64,000 nucleotides of DNA from a virus, in IMG/VR virus record IMGVR_UViG_3300036791_001907, positions 32,001 through 96,000 of that record; one strand, 5' to 3'. The position numbers and the translations under genes are program-made. This document shows positions 28,237 to 49,870 of the stretch, piece after piece. Under the pieces are notes generated by a model. It was not told the origin of the DNA. It did not search any database and was given only the letters and a program-made list of their open reading frames with translations. The first letter of the stretch is position 1, and every line of letters starts with the position of its first letter.

Positions 28237-28785
28237 ATGGTCGGGAAAGCCTACGGACCACGGGGCATGATGAAGTCCCGCGAGGATGTGACCCAGGGAT
28301 GGGCCCAGGCCATCAAGGCCAACGTCCGGCCGCCTGAAGGCGGCGTGCTCACGGACGCGGCGGCCAGCGACTACGCCGATCAGTTCTGGAGGTCGCTGGA
28401 GCAGCGCCATGTGCCGATCAAGGAGATCATGGCGGTACCCGGCAGGGACGCTGTGGCATGGGTGCTGCTCGCCGCAGCTCCGGCTACAACCATTGAGATC
28501 GACGCGATGGCGATCGACGAACCCCCGGAATTCGAGGAGGACCATGTGAAGACGGCGCAGGGCAAACCCATCGATCTGGGGACGCGCGATGTGACGGTAT
28601 CGGTATACGCGCTCCTCAATGCCACGATCCGCGTCAAGGGCGATGACGGCGAGTATCATCCCGTGCCTGTCCAGGCCGAGCTCGAGATCCATCACGGGAG
28701 TCTGCGCCAGCTGGTCCAGAAGGCCAACACGAACATGTCGAAGAAGAGCAGCGACGGCGCGGTGACCGTTCGCATCCGCGGGTAA
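28237..28785 (+). CDS. Hypothetical protein
   Basis: ATG 28237 after GGAGG. Confidence 0.55.
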   Translation: MVGKAYGPRGMMKSREDVTQGWAQAIKANVRPPEGGVLTDAAASDYADQFWRSLEQRHVPIKEIMAVPGRDAVAWVLLAAAPATTIEIDAMAIDEPPEFEEDHVKTAQGKPIDLGTRDVTVSVYALLNATIRVKGDDGEYHPVPVQAELEIHHGSLRQLVQKANTNMSKKSSDGAVTVRIRG

Positions 28786-29289
28786 CCCAATGAAGGAGGA
28801 TGATGGGCATGTGGACGTCTTATCTTCAGCTCCGCGGCGCCGAGGCCCGTGCGGCCGGACGGTCCCGCGACGATCACCAGCTCGACAGCCAGGACGCGGC
28901 GCTGTGGCTGGAGGGCTACGATGCCATGAACCAGAGGATCACGTCGCTCCTCGGCGAGATCCGCAGGGGTTGGCTGGTCCCGCACGTCGTCTTCGTCCAG
29001 CGAGAGCGACCCAGCGTTCCCGTGGTGATCACTCCGATCCGAGGATTGTCCGAATGAACAAGCCCAAGTATCACCGCGGCCAGAAGTTCCGGATGGGCAG
29101 CGACGGCTCGCGGTTCGAGATCGAAAACGTGCGCGTGCTGGCACCCGATGATCGGATCGGCTACGAGCTGCGCGGCCTGGAGGAACCATTCCAGGGAATG
29201 GTTCTTCACCGCTTCGAGGCCGAGCTGGAACGCGACTTCGAGCTGGAGCCAGAACCACCAAAGGAGGACCCAGCGTAACGATGCAGCGA

Positions 29290-29689
29290 ACCGACGGCCA
29301 GCGGTATATCTGGCGGTGATGGCAGCGATGGGTATGTTGCGGCGGGCCGAGCTACGTCGTGGTAGGTCCGGCAGCTGCGGTTGGGTTCGTCATGGCGAGC
29401 CGAGCATGGGTATGCTCCGTCATGGCAGCCGAGGCATGGTTTGTTGGACCATGGCGAGATGAGCTTAGCCGAGCTTCGGCGAGGCAGCCGGGGTGTGGTT
29501 CGGCGGGCTGTGCGGCGCCACGCCAGGGTTGGGCAGCTCAGATCAGGTGTGGACAGCTCTGGCCGGCAGCGCCAGGTCATGGCAGCCGAGGATAGACCTG
29601 GCCAGCCACGCGGAGCCGTCGTGAGCCGGGGCAGCATTGGCTGGTCACGTCATGACACGGCCAGTCGAGCACGGCCATGTTATGTCAGC
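29290..29689 (+). ncRNA. Guide-RNA array 1: pseudoknot repeat plus 7 pentamer-coded units (VIPR-like)
   Basis: 33-nt repeat at 29290-29322, then units such as GGCA|GCTGC|GGTTG|GGTTC|GTCAT|GGCGA|GCCGA|GCATG|GGTAT|GCTCC|GTCAT|GGCA. Confidence 0.85.
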
Positions 29690-29706
29690 ATTGAAAGGAG
29701 GTGAAT

Positions 29707-29928
29707 GTGTCAAAGATAGTTCATTTGATCTATCATCGCGTCCCCAACGATCGGATCTCAGACATGAGCGAGGTCGTGGGGGTCGTGACCACGGGCTGGC
29801 AGGATGCCGATGCGATCGTGGATCAGCTCAACGCGCGGGACCCATCCGGATTCGGCTGGCAGCGCGACTACTGGAAAAAGGAGGTTGATGTCATCACCAA
29901 GGATGATGTTCCGCGTCGCACTCCATGA
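29707..29928 (+). CDS. Small hypothetical protein between arrays
   Basis: GTG start after AAGGAGG; the pentamer periodicity stops here. Confidence 0.55.
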   Translation: MSKIVHLIYHRVPNDRISDMSEVVGVVTTGWQDADAIVDQLNARDPSGFGWQRDYWKKEVDVITKDDVPRRTP

Positions 29929-29940
29929 CAGGAGACAGCG

Positions 29941-30207
29941 ATGATCTGTCCGGAATGCGGGCATTCCAACCCGGTGATCGCCGCCGAGTGTCTCAAGTGC
30001 CGGTGCCGGTTCCTGGAACACGGTTGTTTTTCCGAGCAGTATCAGCACCCGCTCGTCGGCAAGCGAATCCAGGTCAATACCAGGACCGGCTGCATGGCCG
30101 AAGGGGTCGTGGAGCGGGTGGTGTCTTCACGTTTCGGCCTGCTCGCCTGCCTGGAAGGCGAAAACGGCAGGGCCTGGGCCGTGAACCAATGCACGCCGGT
30201 CACCTGA
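29941..30207 (+). CDS. Small Zn-ribbon protein between arrays
   Basis: 'CPECG...CLKC'; RBS AGGAG. Confidence 0.6.
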   Translation: MICPECGHSNPVIAAECLKCRCRFLEHGCFSEQYQHPLVGKRIQVNTRTGCMAEGVVERVVSSRFGLLACLEGENGRAWAVNQCTPVT

Positions 30208-30219
30208 CCGGCGTCATGG

Positions 30220-30629
30220 ACCGATGGCCGGCGGTATATCCGGCGGTGGTGGCTAGCCCTGGCGACATCAGCAATGGTCGCGCGAGCACTGCCGTGGCGC
30301 GTTCAGGCAGTACAGGCGGGGTGATGCGGGCAACGGCAGGGCCGGGTCCGTCCGGCGATGTCATGCCACGGTATGGCAGCTCAGGTGAGTTCAGATCGGC
30401 CATGCGCGGGCTGGCTGCGGTGACCAGAGGTGGGTCGAGCCGTGGCGAGGCAGCGTAGCCATGGAAGGGTCGGGTCGGTTGAGCTGCGGCGAGCCCAGCT
30501 GACGCAGGGCTGGCCGCGGCAGCAAAGAACCGATGGCCAGCGGTATATCTGGCGGTGACGGGAAGCATCGGCAGCGACGGAATGGCAGGGCAAGTTGCGT
30601 CTTGTTCCGGCCAGCCAAGTCATGGCTGC
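30220..30629 (+). ncRNA. Guide-RNA arrays 2-3: two pseudoknot repeats, 5 units; the last unit matches the downstream RAMP gene
   Basis: Repeats at 30220-30252 and 30529-30561; GGCA-delimited pentamer tracts. Confidence 0.85.
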
Positions 30630-30754
30630 GTCGTATTGCCGATCACTACGAGGACGATCCGCCTGCGCGGTGGATCGGAACACGTACTGAACACCCTACA
30701 GTTGCAGGGCCGCGGGACGCGCGGCCCGTCTCACTGGCGACAAAGGATGATCCA

Positions 30755-31666
30755 ATGCCAGCCAAGAAAGGTCCGGCCAAGGGGACAGTCCCGGTCAACA
30801 TCCCCCAGCCACAGATCCTCGACTTCGGGATCGGACTCATCGGCGTGACGCCGACGATCTCGAACGCATTCCCGCAGAAGATCCGTGAGAAGCTCGTGGC
30901 TGATCACATGCACATGCCTGAGGCCCTCATCCCCCACGAGGCCAAGGACCCGTGCGCCAACTTCAGCGCGTGCATCCACTACGTCAAGTCCAAGGACGGT
31001 GGGGTCAACTTCGCCATGCCCGGCTCCTCGTTCAAGGGGGCCATGGTCGCGGCGTGCCGGATGACCAACAAGAAGTTGGACATGGCCAGTGCCAAGCAGT
31101 TCTTCCAGGTGATCCCGTTCCGGGTCCAGATGTACGGCGACGAGCCGATCATGTGCGAGCACCGGGTCCGCAACGACAACGGCGGCGTCGACATCCGGCA
31201 CCGGGCCATGTACTGCCGTTGGTCGGTGATCCTGCCGATCCGCTACCACGCGGGGTCGATCTCCAAGGAGTCCCTGATCTACCTGGCGGAGCTGGCCGGC
31301 TTCGGCTGTGGCATCGGTGACTGGCGGATCGCGGCGCCCAAGAGCCCCAACGGGCAGATGGGCGCCTTCCGCGTGGCCCGCGAGGGCGAGATCGTCGGCC
31401 CGGCGTACTCCAAGTGGTGCGCCAAGAACCCGTTCGACTGGGACGAGTTCGAGCAGTACGGCATCGTCCCGCCCGCGCGGGTCGAGTACTACCGCAAGGC
31501 CGCCGAGATGGTTCGCGGCCTGCCGCCCGAGCAGCGGGGCACGCCCAAGAAGGGCAAGAGCCGGAAGGCTGTGCCCACCGCTGCGGCCGCCGCGGCGATC
31601 ATCAACGGCGTCCAGCCCGTCGACGGCCTTGAGCCGCCCGATGACGGCTACGTGCCGCAGCAGTAA
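30755..31666 (+). CDS. vipr: Stand-alone RAMP/Cas7-like RRM protein; putative RNA-guided effector (Vipr-like)
   Basis: 303 aa from ATG 30755 (RBS AAAGGA). First strand 'IGLIGVTP', RAMP helix motif 'MPGSSFKGAM', C-terminal G-rich loop 'AGFGCGIGDWR...GQMGAFRV'. No other cas genes in the window; flanked by the arrays. Confidence 0.8.
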   Translation: MPAKKGPAKGTVPVNIPQPQILDFGIGLIGVTPTISNAFPQKIREKLVADHMHMPEALIPHEAKDPCANFSACIHYVKSKDGGVNFAMPGSSFKGAMVAACRMTNKKLDMASAKQFFQVIPFRVQMYGDEPIMCEHRVRNDNGGVDIRHRAMYCRWSVILPIRYHAGSISKESLIYLAELAGFGCGIGDWRIAAPKSPNGQMGAFRVAREGEIVGPAYSKWCAKNPFDWDEFEQYGIVPPARVEYYRKAAEMVRGLPPEQRGTPKKGKSRKAVPTAAAAAAIINGVQPVDGLEPPDDGYVPQQ

Positions 31667-31741
31667 CCACTTCGTGCAGGAGGACGACCGGGGGCCAGGA
31701 TGGCCCCATCTTTCCCGCAACCCTAGCAGCAAGGATCGAAC

Positions 31742-32275
31742 ATGCCATCGGGTGTCAAGAAGAAGTCATCAGCGCCGGCGCCGGCGCTCAAGTACGAGTT
31801 CCGGGCCTGCTTCCGGAGCCCGCTCGATCCCAACGTCGTCGCGGCGCGGCTCGAATGGCTCAGAACCAGACTGAGCCGGGACCCGGAGGGTCAGGACGTC
31901 CTGGAAGACGCCCGGCCCGTCGGCTCGCCGTTGCATGATCACTTCGACTGGAATGACTACGAGGCCGGCGAGAAGCATCGGCTCGGCCAGGCCACGGATC
32001 TGATCAACGCCATCCGGGTCACCGTTTACGTGGTGGCGAAGCCCAAGGGGCGGGTCAAGCAGCTGCTGCCGGCCTATGTCCGGCTGAAGAACCCCGCCGG
32101 TCGGCGCACCTTCGTCGCAGCGACCATCGCGACGGCAACGCCCCGGCGCGCAGAGACGCTGGCGGAGACCATCATTCGGTATGCACACATGGCGACTCGC
32201 GATCGCGCGCTCGGGCTCACCGAGCTGGATCCGCTGTTCGACGTGATTGATAAGTTGAAGAAGCGGTACGGCTGA
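31742..32275 (+). CDS. Accessory protein of the RAMP locus
   Basis: 177 aa; 'ARPVGSPLHDHFDWND.EAGEKHRL.QATDLINAI' is a phage hypothetical motif I recall next to such RAMP-like genes. Followed within 10 nt by a pseudoknot repeat. Confidence 0.7.
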   Translation: MPSGVKKKSSAPAPALKYEFRACFRSPLDPNVVAARLEWLRTRLSRDPEGQDVLEDARPVGSPLHDHFDWNDYEAGEKHRLGQATDLINAIRVTVYVVAKPKGRVKQLLPAYVRLKNPAGRRTFVAATIATATPRRAETLAETIIRYAHMATRDRALGLTELDPLFDVIDKLKKRYG

Positions 32276-32283
32276 TGCAGCAG

Positions 32284-33923
32284 ACCGACGGTCGGCGGTA
32301 TATCCGGTGGTGACGGGAAGGCGGCAGAGATCCGGCTTCGTTCGCTCCGGCGTGCGACGCTGGGGCCCGGCAGCCAAGGACCGGCGTGGCAAGCCGCGTT
32401 CTGGCTTGCAGCGTCTAGGTTCGGCCGCAGCGGAGGGCCAGGCCGGGGTAGTGTTCGGCTCCGCAGGTCGAGGCTTGTCCCGGTTCGGCAGCTCGGGTGC
32501 GTCGTGCTGCGAATAGGCATCGTGAGGCTGGCTTCGGCAGCGTCAGGCAGCGGCGGAGGGCCTTGTCCGGGTGTGGCATTCGGCGGCTTGGCGTGCCCAG
32601 GTGAGCCGAGGCCGTACAGGTTAGGCGGGATGCGCCCGGCACTGCAATGGCCTGCTCCGGCTGGCCGGGCAGTAAAGAACCGACGGCCAGCGGTATATCT
32701 GGCGGTGACGGCAGTTCAGGAGCGGATGGGACGGCCCAGGCAGGGCTTGTTACGGCCCGCCGGGACTCGTTTCGGCGCCGCCGTATTGGTCTGGCTTCAC
32801 ATGCCGTGGCGACGTGAGCCGCGGTCAGCACAGGAGCGGCAGCGATGGTTCGTCTAGTCTACACAAGGCAGGCCCAGGCAGCCGGAGGTATGCCCAGCAG
32901 GGCCATGGCCGTACAGGACAGCAGGGGTAGGTAAAGCACGGGCAAGCCGTGCCGGGTCCCGGCAGCGAAGCCGAGTTCCGGTGTGGTGCGCCGTGGTGGC
33001 GTCCGTCACGGCGGGCCATGTCGCGGCTAGTCAAGTCGCGGCAGCAAAAAACCTATGGCCACAGGTATATGTGGTGGTGATGGCAGGCAGGGCAAGCCCT
33101 GTCACGTCGCGGTGCGGCATGTCCCGGCAGCGTAGGCTTGGTCAGATACGCGAAGTCCTGGTACGCCGCGGCCGGCACAGGTTAGCTGCGGCCAGGCAGC
33201 ATAGGCTCGTCCCAGCAAAGGCAGGTCGCGACAGGGCTGGCCGCGGTTCGGCAGCATTGGCTGGGAAAGCCCAGCCCAGGTTCGCCGCGCCACGCAGGGC
33301 TTCGGCGGGGCGGGGCAGTCAAGGATCGGCATGGCGTGTCTAGCCACGGTCCGTCATGGCGAGTCGTGCTGCGGCAGCGGCGGAGAGCCGAGCCGTGGTG
33401 GCAACTGGTGGGCCAAGCTACGTTGTGGCGACGCCGGATAGGTATGGCATGCCCCGGACTGCCATGGCGAGTCATGGCGGGCCATGGCGAGCCGTGGCCG
33501 CGAAGGAGTGGCCGCCCGGCGTTCGTCCGGCGTTGGTTGGTCTAGGTAGGGACGCGTCAGCCGGGGCAGTCATGGTTTGGCGCGGCTTGCCTGGTCGTGC
33601 CACGGCAAGCGATGCCAGGGATGGGCAGCAAAAAACCCATGGTCACGGGTATATGTGACGGTGATGGTGCGGCAGCTCGGCCCTGCCATGATGGGGCATG
33701 TCGAGCCGCGGCCAGCAGCGCAATGGTAGCGCTGGTGTTCCCAAGCTTGGCCTGGGTAAGTCAAGCGCTGGCCAGCCGGGGCAGCGAAGGTGAGGCTAGA
33801 TCTATCGAGCCTAGCGCTGTCATGTGCTGGTGAGCCGGGGTGAGCCTCGGTACGGTATCGCCGCTCTGGCGGCGTTAGTCGTGACATCGAAAGCTGTGGT
33901 ATGCCGAGTCGAGGTCAGACAGC
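32284..33923 (+). ncRNA. Guide-RNA arrays 4-7: four pseudoknot repeats, about 24 units
   Basis: Repeats at 32284, 32679, 33051 and 33635; continuous 5-nt periodicity reset by 4-nt GGCA/GGCC/CGCC delimiters. Confidence 0.9.
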
Positions 33924-33936
33924 AGAGGAGGTGTGA

Positions 33937-34152
33937 ATGATCGGACCCAAGTGCGAGTGCCGAAAGCCGACCTTTCCGTCTGAAGACGAACAGTCCTGGC
34001 TGTGCATGAACCCGGAGTGTGCGGGCTTCCAGCAGGTCTACTGCGAGTTGACGCCGGCAGACCTGGCGCTCATCGCCAAGCTGAAGGCGCTGGCCAATGG
34101 CCACTGGCAGCGTGTTGCAAAAACCCGAAAACTCCGCGGTACCAGGAAGTGA
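33937..34152 (+). CDS. Small Zn-finger protein inserted in the array
   Basis: RBS GAGGAGG; 'CEC...CMNPEC'; lacks pentamer periodicity. Confidence 0.6.
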   Translation: MIGPKCECRKPTFPSEDEQSWLCMNPECAGFQQVYCELTPADLALIAKLKALANGHWQRVAKTRKLRGTRK

Positions 34153-34157
34153 TGAAC

Positions 34158-35835
34158 GGTTCGGCAGCCGCGGTGAGGTGCGACCGGGTTCGTCCAGCGA
34201 TGGCGGACCTTGGTGTGGCATCACAGCAGTAAACCTATGGCCACAGGTATAAGTGGCGGTGATGGAATGGCAGCATCGGACGGGCTCGGACGGGCCATGA
34301 CGGGCCGGGTTAGCTGTGCCGCGTCAAGGCAGTACTGGCTAGGTTTTTCAGGGCATGCTCTGGTGCGCCTGGTCACGGCCGTCTAGGTGAGGAGTCGCGT
34401 GCAGCGGCTTGCCACGGCCAGTTCTGTCGAGGCAAGCCGAGGCCGTCAAGGTGCGGCCAGGCAAGTAATGCAGGGATCGGGCTGGCTATGGTCCGGCCGC
34501 AATGGCAAGGTTAGTTGCGGCTGGTACCGGCGGGGCGAGCCCTGCTGTGGTATGGCCGTAACGGTAGTCCGCGGAGCGCCATGGACGGCCCCGCTCAGGC
34601 TGGCCAAGGTCGGCCGAGGCAGTCTTGCAAGGGATCGTCCAGCCTGGTTGTGCCATGGCCAGGCAGGGGAGCAGAGGTGTGTTCTGGCACCCTGTGATCT
34701 GGCCGGCCAAGTCACGGCAAGGCCGGGCAGCAGTAAACCCATGGTCGCGGGTATATGCGACGGTGATGGAAGGGCAGCCGTGGACAGCAGGGTTATGATG
34801 CGCTGCGCAAGGGCTGGTCCTGGCAGGCCAAGGATCGGCAGGAGAGCACAGGTCCGGTCTGCATAGTAGTGGCGAGACCTACCATGTCGAGCCGGGTTTC
34901 GGCAGCAATGCGAAGGTGAGCCTTGCCGGGGCGGCCGTAGCTGTGGCAGTGTAGTCGAGTCGTGGCAAGCCTAGTCCGGCATAGTTGGGCTCTGGTCCGG
35001 TCCGGCAGCAGAAGTGTGTCTTGGTCCGCCGCGTCGCGACGCGGTGGGATCCGGCAGTAATGGTGCGGCTAGTCATGGCGCCGCGAGCCGCGCTGTGTCA
35101 TGTCATGATCTGGCTAGGCCGGACAGCAAAAAACCGATGGCCAGCGGTATATCTGGTGGTGACGGGAAGCATCGGCAGCGACGGCAAGCCGTGGTGTGGT
35201 ATGCCCGGCTCCGCCAAGCTACGGCAGCAGTGGGCAGGCTGGGCAGGTTTTGCTCCGTCGTGTCGAGTGTTGGTAAGGCAGCCATGGTGTGGCCCGGCGC
35301 GTCATGTCGCGTCGTCCTTTGCGCCGGCATGGCGTGGCCGCTGTGGCAAGACACCCTTAGTCATGATGGGGCCGGGCGGGCACCTGTTTGCTGCGCCGAG
35401 TCGTGGCAGTGACGCAGTGGTGTGTTGTGCCCCGGCCTGCCCCGGCGAGTCCTGTCATCGTGGGCAGCGCTGAGGCAGCAAAAAACCCATGGCCACGGGT
35501 ATATGTGGCGGTGATGGACAGCCCCGCGCTGGCCGGCTTTGGTCAGCCATGCAGAGCTGCGGCAGCAGAGGTGAGGCGTGACCAGCACAGCCGGGGTACG
35601 GTTCGCTGTGCCCTGGTTAGGCAGGTGGGTCATGGTTCGCGATGGCGCGTTGAGCCTTGCCATGGTGAGGCAGCAATGGATCGGCGGGCTGTGGCACGGC
35701 AAGCCTGGGTCGGATCCGCTGCGGCAGCGGAGGTGCGGAACGCCATGGACCGGCAGGGTGGGCCAGGGTGGGCCGAGCCACGGCAGCACGGGTGTGCCGT
35801 GTCCGGCCTAGTCAAGGACGGATGAGCCGCGCACT
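34158..35835 (+). ncRNA. Guide-RNA arrays 8-11: four pseudoknot repeats, about 26 units
   Basis: Repeats at 34233, 34737, 35133 and 35485; same pentamer grammar; ends at a strong hairpin. Confidence 0.9.
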
Positions 35836-35840
35836 GTGGA

Positions 35841-35870
35841 AGGGGGCGTGGTCTTCGGGCCACGCCCCCT
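35841..35870. terminator. GC-rich hairpin with cUUCGg tetraloop closing the array
   Basis: AGGGGGCGTGGTC-TTCG-GGCCACGCCCCCT, between the + strand array and a convergent - strand gene; U-tract weak. Confidence 0.7.
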
Positions 35871-35872
35871 CC

Positions 35873-36079
35873 TTATACCTTCACGCCGGCGAGCAACTCG
35901 AAGACCCCGAATGCCTTACACAAAAAGATGATCAGAACCAGGGCCAGCAGACCATAAGCGAGGTGAATACACCACCGCGGGTAAGCCAGCCTCGATCCCA
36001 GCTGCTGATCGGCGAAGGCGACCAGCGCGCAGGCGATGATGAACGCCAGAACGGCCAGCAAAACGCCGAGCAAACTCAC
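35873..36079 (-). CDS. Small two-TM membrane protein
   Basis: 68 aa, two hydrophobic helices, coupled to the upstream - strand gene. Confidence 0.6.
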   Translation of the reverse strand: MSLLGVLLAVLAFIIACALVAFADQQLGSRLAYPRWCIHLAYGLLALVLIIFLCKAFGVFELLAGVKV

Positions 36080-37251
36080 GGTGCACCTCCCTGACGATGA
36101 GTCGCGGCCAGGGCCCGCAGATCCTCACGAGTGAACCCCGTCCGGACGCCAGCTTCCTTGACGAAGGGACGAATGGACCGATCCGCGCACAGTGTATCGA
36201 AGATCCGGGCATCGCCCAGTGGCAGCGTCGGAATGATCTCAGCCATCTTGGTCGCATCAACATGGATGCCATCGCTGTCGATGGCGTTGGCCAGCTCATC
36301 ACCCATGTAACTTCGCACGTCACGAATTCGCAACCGGCCCAGGTCATCGCGGTTGTAGACCGAGCCGCTGGTCGTCGAGACGTGCTGGTCGGCCAGCGCC
36401 GAGGCCACCTTCCGTGTGATCCTGAAAAGCAGGTCCTCGGCCCGCGGCACGGCGGCGGAATATTCACGAATGCGCAGCATCCGGTCGAGCTGATCGATGA
36501 CCTCGGCAGTCTTGATCAGCCGGTCAGGCGCGCGGGACTTGGCCGGATCCTTGGTGATCATGTCGGCCATCCTCTCCAGCTCGCCGGCGAGATCAGGATC
36601 CCGGGCGCGCGCGATCTTGGCGCGATCGCGAACCAGCTGCGCCGCCTCGCTTGCCGAGCAACCGCCGAAGCCGGCCATCCGTTCCAATGGTTCGTCCAGG
36701 CTGCCGAGCGCAGCCCCGTACCGGGCGGCCTTCTGGAGGATCGCCCGCGCCATCTTCAAACGGTCCGGGAAGGTGAACTCATCTCGCCATTTGTGGATGT
36801 ATTCGGCGGCGGCCTTGACCTCGAGCGCATTCCGCAGCGGCAGCTGCCGCTCATTCCCCTGGATCCAGGCAAAGTCCGAGTCAGGCAGCTTCGCCAGGTC
36901 ATCATGGGCCATCGCCGCGGCCTTCTCGCGCAGCGCATCGGCCTGGGACTCGATCCCCCAGAAGCGGGCGGCTTCCGTGAGCCGGCCCTCGATCTCCGCA
37001 GCCTCGCGCTGCGGCAGTCCGGCTTTCTTGTCGACGAAGAACGCTGCTGACAGCCATGTCGCAGCTTTTGTATGCATGGGATAGCGGCGGTGCCGCTGGT
37101 CGGCAAACAGATGCGGCAGGGTTGACTCTGGCCCACAGAGCTGTTCGACGCTAGCCTCTTTAACAAAGGCTGGTGCCTCGAAGAGCTGGACCAGTCGGTA
37201 TGTTTCCTGACCGCCAAGGTCGGTCGTCTGATCGAGGATCGGTTGTGGCAC
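36076..37251 (-). CDS. Hypothetical protein (possibly virion/head associated)
   Basis: GTG start at 37251 after GGAGG; helical, with 'VKEA/KTA' motifs; function not recognised. Confidence 0.6.
   Translation of the reverse strand: MPQPILDQTTDLGGQETYRLVQLFEAPAFVKEASVEQLCGPESTLPHLFADQRHRRYPMHTKAATWLSAAFFVDKKAGLPQREAAEIEGRLTEAARFWGIESQADALREKAAAMAHDDLAKLPDSDFAWIQGNERQLPLRNALEVKAAAEYIHKWRDEFTFPDRLKMARAILQKAARYGAALGSLDEPLERMAGFGGCSASEAAQLVRDRAKIARARDPDLAGELERMADMITKDPAKSRAPDRLIKTAEVIDQLDRMLRIREYSAAVPRAEDLLFRITRKVASALADQHVSTTSGSVYNRDDLGRLRIRDVRSYMGDELANAIDSDGIHVDATKMAEIIPTLPLGDARIFDTLCADRSIRPFVKEAGVRTGFTREDLRALAATHRQGGAP

Positions 37252-46147: not shown

Positions 46148-49870
<3,723 letters not shown>

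Follow-up and report, generated by a model that had tools for sequence, protein, structure and literature searches.

Within a 161-kb virus record of IMG/VR (66% G+C) lies a region of five-nucleotide repeats in which the variable dinucleotides, read as the first two bases of successive codons, can spell catalytic motifs of helicases. The question that this locus raises is whether the repeats are guides and, if so, which genes they are aimed at. An earlier note, made from the letters of the DNA, had drawn attention to two units of this kind and to a third that it called weak. We have analyzed a stretch of 64,000 nucleotides of the record (IMGVR_UViG_3300036791_001907, positions 32,001 to 96,000), which we term the window and to which all coordinates refer. 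Among the genes of the window are those for baseplate proteins, the large terminase and ribonucleotide reductase. In the class II ribonucleotide reductase gene (46148-49870) there is an intein that includes an HNH endonuclease, with matches to Pfam Intein_splicing and HNH_3.

The locus is a VIPR system

VIPR is a CRISPR-like gene-silencing system that was first described in 2026 preprints (bioRxiv 10.64898/2026.04.26.720920), and for which structures are available (bioRxiv 10.64898/2026.04.26.720927). Its vrRNA comprises 9-16 YNNGG repeats, and the Vipr protein, a minimal RAMP, sequesters each GGY and displays the NN. The NN pairs bind double-stranded DNA with one target base skipped per unit, usually the codon wobble position, and binding of Vipr-vrRNA silences transcription. 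Staggered arrays with 1-nt overlaps are known (bioRxiv 10.64898/2026.04.26.720920, fig. S18). The locus in the window has the following features.

29290..35870, + strand: the whole VIPR locus, with blocks of pentamer guides (~61 guides) interspersed with small ORFs, vipr and a candidate vap
30755..31666, + strand: vipr, RAMP-like effector, from a PDB sequence match and phrog_4652
31742..32275, + strand: candidate vap, accessory protein of 177 aa, assigned by its position directly downstream of vipr
32663..32711, + strand: 49-nt core copy heading the block of guide A, AACCNAYGG / covarying hairpin / GGTATAT / GGTGAYGG
32268-32316, 32663-32711, 33035-33083 and 33619-33667: 49-nt core copies, first set
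34217-34265, 34721-34769, 35117-35165 and 35469-35517: 49-nt core copies, second set
29283-29322, 30217-30250 and 30520-30561: further 49-nt core copies
35843-35870: terminator hairpin closing the locus

A 5-nt periodicity is limited to the VIPR stretches of the 161-kb genome and is lacking in the coding flanks. The region 29290-35870 has a few small genes and is otherwise without a credible long ORF. A five-state cyclic HMM gave a pentamer profile of G (95%), then G, C or T, then C, T or A, followed by two positions of almost zero information at which all 16 NN pairs occur. Viterbi parsing yielded 652 regular pentamers and 60 shortened boundary units; the latter are mostly the 4-mer GGCA, with GGCC and CGCC also used, and the resulting unit lengths are 49, 54, 59 or 64 nt. 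The autocorrelation of G moves in phase by −1 at intervals of ~59 nt, which is the sequence signature of a staggered array. Parsing into guides gave ~61 of them, 7-21 pentamers in length (mostly 9-13), falling into 10-11 blocks, each with the conserved 49-nt core at its head.

Two overlapping helices covary among the copies of this core (ACCN...NGGT and CCACN-GGTATAT-NGTGG), in a pseudoknot-like order and followed by GGTGAYGG. The core may act as a promoter, as a signal for processing or as a handle resembling a vrRNA tail. The motif was not found in other viral contigs, and searches with the locus returned no Rfam family, no tRNA and no DNA match among GenBank phages. Between guide blocks there are small ORFs with CxxC zinc-ribbon-like motifs (29941-30207 and 33937-34152), each with its own Shine-Dalgarno-like sequence.

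The sole PDB sequence match of the vipr ORF is the 'SUSP1 Vipr protein' (36pp_D), a weak match at E = 7e-4 whose alignment spans the G-loop motif (a)G..CG.GDWR (CGxGDWR). The product of the candidate vap matches phrog_15946 and no Pfam family. Judged on sequence, the locus is a VIPR system, given the Vipr match, the pentamer profile, the boundaries and the wobble-aligned targets described below. With that identity and the rule of one skipped nucleotide, to take each NN as the first two positions of a codon is to apply the published code, not numerology. Binding of a TRAP-like ring protein (5-nt period, 11 units) was considered and dropped, as VIPR fits the vipr gene as well as the profile of the pentamers and their boundaries. 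A rod-like structured RNA (fold z = −3.9 for the + strand versus −1.1 for the − strand) was dropped once the VIPR features had been matched, as were Chi-like or centromere-like DNA repeats and neutral microsatellite decay.

A related 226-kb phage (G001) has no VIPR array at the syntenic site (L011:14000-16600, equal to G001 34000-36600, compared with 28770-35890 of the window), so that the locus looks like an inserted cassette. The kinship of the two phages is seen in a neighboring 932-aa protein with 68% identity. At the site G001 has instead ~2 kb of opposite-strand ORFs, and the same terminator hairpin is kept.

Guide A reads the DEAH box of SF2 helicases

The first of the units is bounded as follows.

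32779..32782, + strand: CGCC, phase-resetting boundary 5′ of guide A, an irregular unit in the Viterbi parse; the same 4-mer ends the guide at 33377-33431
32783..32837, + strand: guide A, 11 pentamers, NN = TT CT TT AT GT GA GA GC CA CA GC
32838..32841, + strand: GGCA, boundary 3′ of guide A, a staggered-array signature

Guide A decodes to [FL]L[FL][IM]V[DE][DE]A[HQ][HQ]A, which is motif II of SF2 helicases, the DEAH box. Its triplets are below average (10th lowest of the 61 guides), and two are without the leading G. The earlier note had read the unit as (F/L)L(F/L)IVDEAHHA; this decoding is correct, and the best matches are to motif II of ResIII and SNF2 helicases of SF2, in frame.

The 8-NN core of guide A matched at least 115 viral contigs, and in all 115 matches listed it falls in frame 0 of a long ORF. 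IVDEAHHA is encoded in 96 of these, and 98 have the ResIII-type context DEAHHA..Y/W, with the skipped (wobble) bases varying freely. Representative ORFs among the viral and cellular matches carry the SF2 domains ResIII, DEAD, SNF2-rel_dom and Helicase_C. A 10-NN pattern found 21 matches in cellular genomes, every one in frame, in SNF2, ResIII and Hef helicases together with a minority of MuB-like AAA_22 (LLIVDEAQHA), AAA_10 and ATPase_2 proteins. No exact target (11 NN, 22/22) was present in the viral, genome and metagenome collections. Guide A scores at least 18/22 at 72 of the at least 115 viral loci, with a mode of 17-18/22 and the three 5′ NN mostly mismatched. The top score among the matches listed, 21/22, is that of a viral helicase (L064) and not of drmD, the gene discussed below; the ORF of L064, like that of L034, has Pfam ResIII and Helicase_C domains.

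Any string of 11 dinucleotides yields a peptide of one kind or another, and the resemblance of guide A and of the second unit, guide B, to helicases might have been assigned post hoc. Such a chance origin would be in keeping with the lack of an exact target, and with the third unit, which was flagged in the same manner and proved to be chance. Nor are guides A and B wholly independent of each other, given a similar stretch in both (GTGAG..CAGCACAG). Yet cores of the same length from guide B and the third unit (guide C) gave a baseline of only 8 matches (6 of them non-helicase) and 30 matches, respectively, mostly out of frame, compared with at least 115 for guide A, all of those listed being in frame 0. 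In 401 Pseudomonadota genomes the guide A core had nine matches and the reversed pattern none, and a second guide matches at 22/22 a gene that guide A also matches. The in-frame pattern of guide A exceeds chance, and we regard a chance origin of the helicase reading as most improbable.

Two guides converge on drmD of class 1 DISARM

We rescored all guides on the loci that had been fetched. A second guide was found to match the same genes as guide A.

33377..33431, + strand: partner guide, reading SNF2 motif I as A[DE][DE]VGLG[KN]TV[DE]; on drmD genes its site is 106 codons upstream of that of guide A

In an alphaproteobacterial MAG (L193) the motif-I guide scores 22/22 and guide A 20/22, in the same ORF and 106 codons apart. 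PADLOC assigns the gene to DrmD (E = 1e-136) and the next one to DrmMI (E = 2e-202). The drmD of L193 (L193:2387-5338) is broken across three reading frames, through assembly error or because the gene is decaying. In Bradyrhizobium manausense (L217) the scores are again 22/22 and 20/22, and the gene order is SNF2, an N6_Mtase/MmeI/Eco57I protein, a 1175-aa Helicase_C protein and MZB (DUF1998). A Logan contig (L218) gave 22/22 and 19/22. These findings fit class 1 DISARM, in which an SNF2 helicase of the DrmD type shares an operon with DrmMI, DrmA and DrmB (DUF1998/MZB), and DrmD is also the name given to the protein in database sources. No further guide did better than 30 shuffles on the drmD loci of L217 and L218. 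A guide at 32550-32609 that would lie upstream of drmD (19/24) was judged marginal.

On two contigs (L218:6209-9572 and L219:1556-4919) the guide-matched DISARM operon adjoins a large serine recombinase and two ParB/RepB-like genes, which suggests that DISARM is here carried on an integrative mobile island.

Among 151 genomes of the drmD-bearing family, guide A had 12 matches with three or fewer mismatches, compared with one for the control. Of these matches, four lie in drmD genes on which the motif-I guide scores 21-22/22, and the pair was present in 4 of the 151 genomes. In the best 120 DrmD clusters ADDVGLGKTVE is present in 100, and x-L-[FL]-I-[LV]-DEAHHA in nearly all. The triplet L-F-I, corresponding to positions 2-4 of guide A, is characteristic of drmD and not of the viral helicases with IVDEAHHA. 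Viral SNF2 genes with an exact match to the motif-I guide score only 12-17/22 with guide A. The VIPR preprint used a guide-target criterion of at least 80% NN identity, and drmD lies above this for both guides, at 19-20/22 (86-91%) for guide A and 21-22/22 for the motif-I guide. A figure for mismatch tolerance was not found in the published descriptions of VIPR. The first NN of guide A is a mismatch in every drmD. We found no link between vrRNA and DISARM in the papers searched.

The virus record has no clear host flank. Among 101 genomes of the drmD-bearing family there is one distant relative of the phage TerL, which hints that related phages occur in this bacterial family. The relative (L220/L221; G424:C51:187312-190548) has 46% identity and lies inside a 1089-aa open frame. 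Its match is in two pieces, suggesting an insertion such as an intein.

Convergence of two guides also bears on whether guide A has a single target at all. It might be a broad-spectrum guide against the Walker B DNA of many P-loop NTPases, including SF2 helicases, MuB-like proteins and other AAA proteins, as its 10-codon pattern matches SNF2, ResIII, Hef, MuB-like AAA_22, AAA_10 and ATPase_2 genes, all in frame, and its H/Q and D/E ambiguity extends its reach. However, the non-helicase matches all require Q in place of H and still mismatch the first NN, and a specific gene is indicated by the constant company of the motif-I guide on drmD. A guide of such breadth would also be a risk to housekeeping genes of the host, yet there are just nine core matches in 401 genomes. 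We consider this explanation improbable. LLIVDEAQHA is the Walker B sequence of MuB-like/AAA_22 ATPases of transposable elements (L185, L181, L188 and L194; Rhizobium and Cupriavidus), and guide A scores 20-21/22 there.

Guide B, the third unit and the helicases of other phages

The remaining two units are as follows.

35565..35619, + strand: guide B, 11 pentamers, NN = GA GA GT CA CA GG AC TC GT CT TA; GGCA at 35561-35564 and 35620-35623
33254..33313, + strand: third unit (guide C), of 12 pentamers, the last seven NN being TC GC AC GG TC GG GG = S-A-T-G-S-G-G

Guide B decodes to DEVH(H/Q)GTSVLY. Its core had eight viral matches, two of which are in-frame motif II of helicases while six are non-helicase. 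The better of the two (L140, DEVHHGTSDTY) scores 19/22 and is in a protein with ResIII and Helicase_C domains; the other (L137) reads DEVHQGTSEAY. In the family of the L140 helicase the conserved D, E, H, H, T, S and Y agree with guide B and the variable positions differ. A 9-NN pattern had seven matches in metagenomes, none in a helicase, and a search of the drmD-bearing family (61 genomes) with up to three mismatches allowed gave no match. A target closer than 19/22 was not found in the viral, metagenome or drmD-family genome searches. The match of guide B is probably above chance. The ResIII-type spacing that the earlier note had proposed for this unit is borne out by its best matches, which are DEVH[HQ]GTS..Y in frame in ResIII and Helicase_C proteins.

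The third unit behaved differently. Its 30 viral core matches are in unrelated conserved genes, many on viral contigs of ~5 kb, and none is in frame; on 209 helicase proteins its score was no better than that of shuffles. Guide C is a real guide, and the Walker A-like reading, which had been called weak from the start, is not supported. The earlier note had asked for a gapped search with classification of the genes hit; this placed the best matches of the first two units in frame in helicase genes, so that the note's own ground for refutation does not hold for them, and the matches of the third out of frame. Of the two classes of target that it had named, helicases are supported, and no type I/III restriction subunit was found among the best matches.

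Guides A and B may instead be aimed at the ResIII-type (IRC3-like) replication or recombination helicases of competing phages during co-infection, in which case drmD would be matched incidentally, through the DEAH box that it has in common with them. Competing phages, prophages, satellites and other VIPR loci, and not host defence genes, are what phage-borne VIPR has been reported to target in nature. The viral loci with an in-frame guide A core, the 72 scores of 18/22 or above, and the 21/22 of L064 would all be accounted for, as would the top matches of guide B, which are helicases on viral contigs of ~100 kb. In these genes, however, there is a single guide per gene, none of the other guides being better than shuffles on the at least 115 loci listed. 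The mismatched 5′ NN and the modal score of 17-18/22 also weigh against such targets, as does the L-F-I triplet, which is typical of drmD instead, and no exact target was found. We think it unlikely, if worth serious consideration, that rival phages are the intended targets.

The guides do not match the phage that carries them. Motif II of its own ResIII helicase is LGDEGHE, scoring 14/22 and 12/22 with guides A and B, and so escapes both. A gapped search with all 61 guides of its own genome (with the locus masked) and of the related phage G001 gave nothing above shuffles.

Proposed mechanism

The reading that we prefer takes guides A and B as vrRNA guides belonging to a phage VIPR system with an apparently staggered array, guide A acting with the motif-I guide in the silencing of drmD and hence DISARM, and guide B acting on a helicase of IRC3/ResIII type. 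We assign this a probability of roughly 0.55. By analogy with the published system, Vipr protomers would polymerize along the RNA, with each G-S-H triplet buried by the protein. The displayed NN would pair with double-stranded DNA, every third base of the target being skipped, and the bound filament would be expected to stop transcription. That the present locus is expressed, and that it binds and silences in this manner, we infer from the features that it shares with that system. Since the skipped base is the wobble position, guide A reads just the amino acid-determining bases of x-L-F-I-V-D-E-A-H-H-A, and every codon variant of the β-strand and DEAH box (motif II, Walker B) is thus covered.

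The most likely natural target of guide A would be drmD, the gene for the SNF2 helicase in class 1 DISARM, as it occurs in Bradyrhizobium-like Alphaproteobacteria, which would then be the probable hosts. The guide at 33377-33431 would join it on motif I of drmD, and an anti-phage system of the host, or one borne on an island, might be silenced. Guide B would read motif II and the residues downstream (DEVHH-GTS-x-x-Y) of an IRC3/ResIII-type helicase, the exact owner of which is likely to lie outside the sequences sampled.

On a wider view VIPR may be an RNA-guided weapon against defence, with pairs of wobble-skipping guides on the invariant catalytic motifs of drmD (motif I and the DEAH box) silencing DISARM in Bradyrhizobium-like hosts or on its mobile islands, whatever the codon variant, and other guides such as B likewise directed at further helicases. 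We put this forward tentatively, as somewhat short of an even chance. Several points weigh against drmD as the target: no 22/22 target for guide A, the mismatched first NN, a top score that is viral, and the weak triplets of guide A. Silencing would leave in place any DISARM protein already made at the time of infection, and competing mobile elements are the targets of the phage-borne VIPR systems published.

Comparison with known systems

The locus resembles the published staggered-array VIPR (bioRxiv 10.64898/2026.04.26.720920, fig. S18) in having a phage Vipr RAMP with a candidate accessory gene, tandem pentamers of the GGY/NN type, boundaries at which one guide would end as the next begins, and coding targets with the wobble position as the base that is skipped. 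It differs in three respects. The triplet is looser here, G-[GCT]-[CTA] being more degenerate than the strict GGY. The array is very large, with ~61 guides in 10-11 blocks each with a 49-nt core, and guides A and B spell catalytic motifs common to a superfamily rather than sequences specific to one element.

A close parallel is vrRNA4 of SUSP1, which targets the catalytic core of the excision recombinase of a satellite (bioRxiv 10.64898/2026.10.15.759431). There too a wobble-aligned guide lies on active-site codons, so that escape needs amino acid changes in an essential motif. The target of vrRNA4 is one family of satellite genes, whereas the DEAH box is common to a whole superfamily of helicases. 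Moreover, the best-supported gene here belongs to a bacterial defence system, DISARM, and is matched by two guides.

Viruses that carry programmable guides against an element restricting them are known in other forms. The CRISPR-Cas system of ICP1, directed against PLE, is an example of phage-borne CRISPR. The 'dummy' crRNAs that act as anti-CRISPRs are another RNA-based form of anti-defence. Unlike phage-borne CRISPR, VIPR binds and silences without cutting, its guides are non-contiguous, and acquisition from the target is not known.

The mechanism proposed here is the known VIPR code. What is new are guides that spell catalytic motifs common to a superfamily, and the pairing of guide A with a second guide on drmD of DISARM. 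If guides can address invariant motifs of a superfamily, then one short RNA would cover thousands of gene variants. If drmD is the intended gene, VIPR would in addition give phages a programmable means of countering bacterial immunity. The ~61 natural guides of this locus are a large set from which rules of targeting and mismatch tolerance may be drawn.
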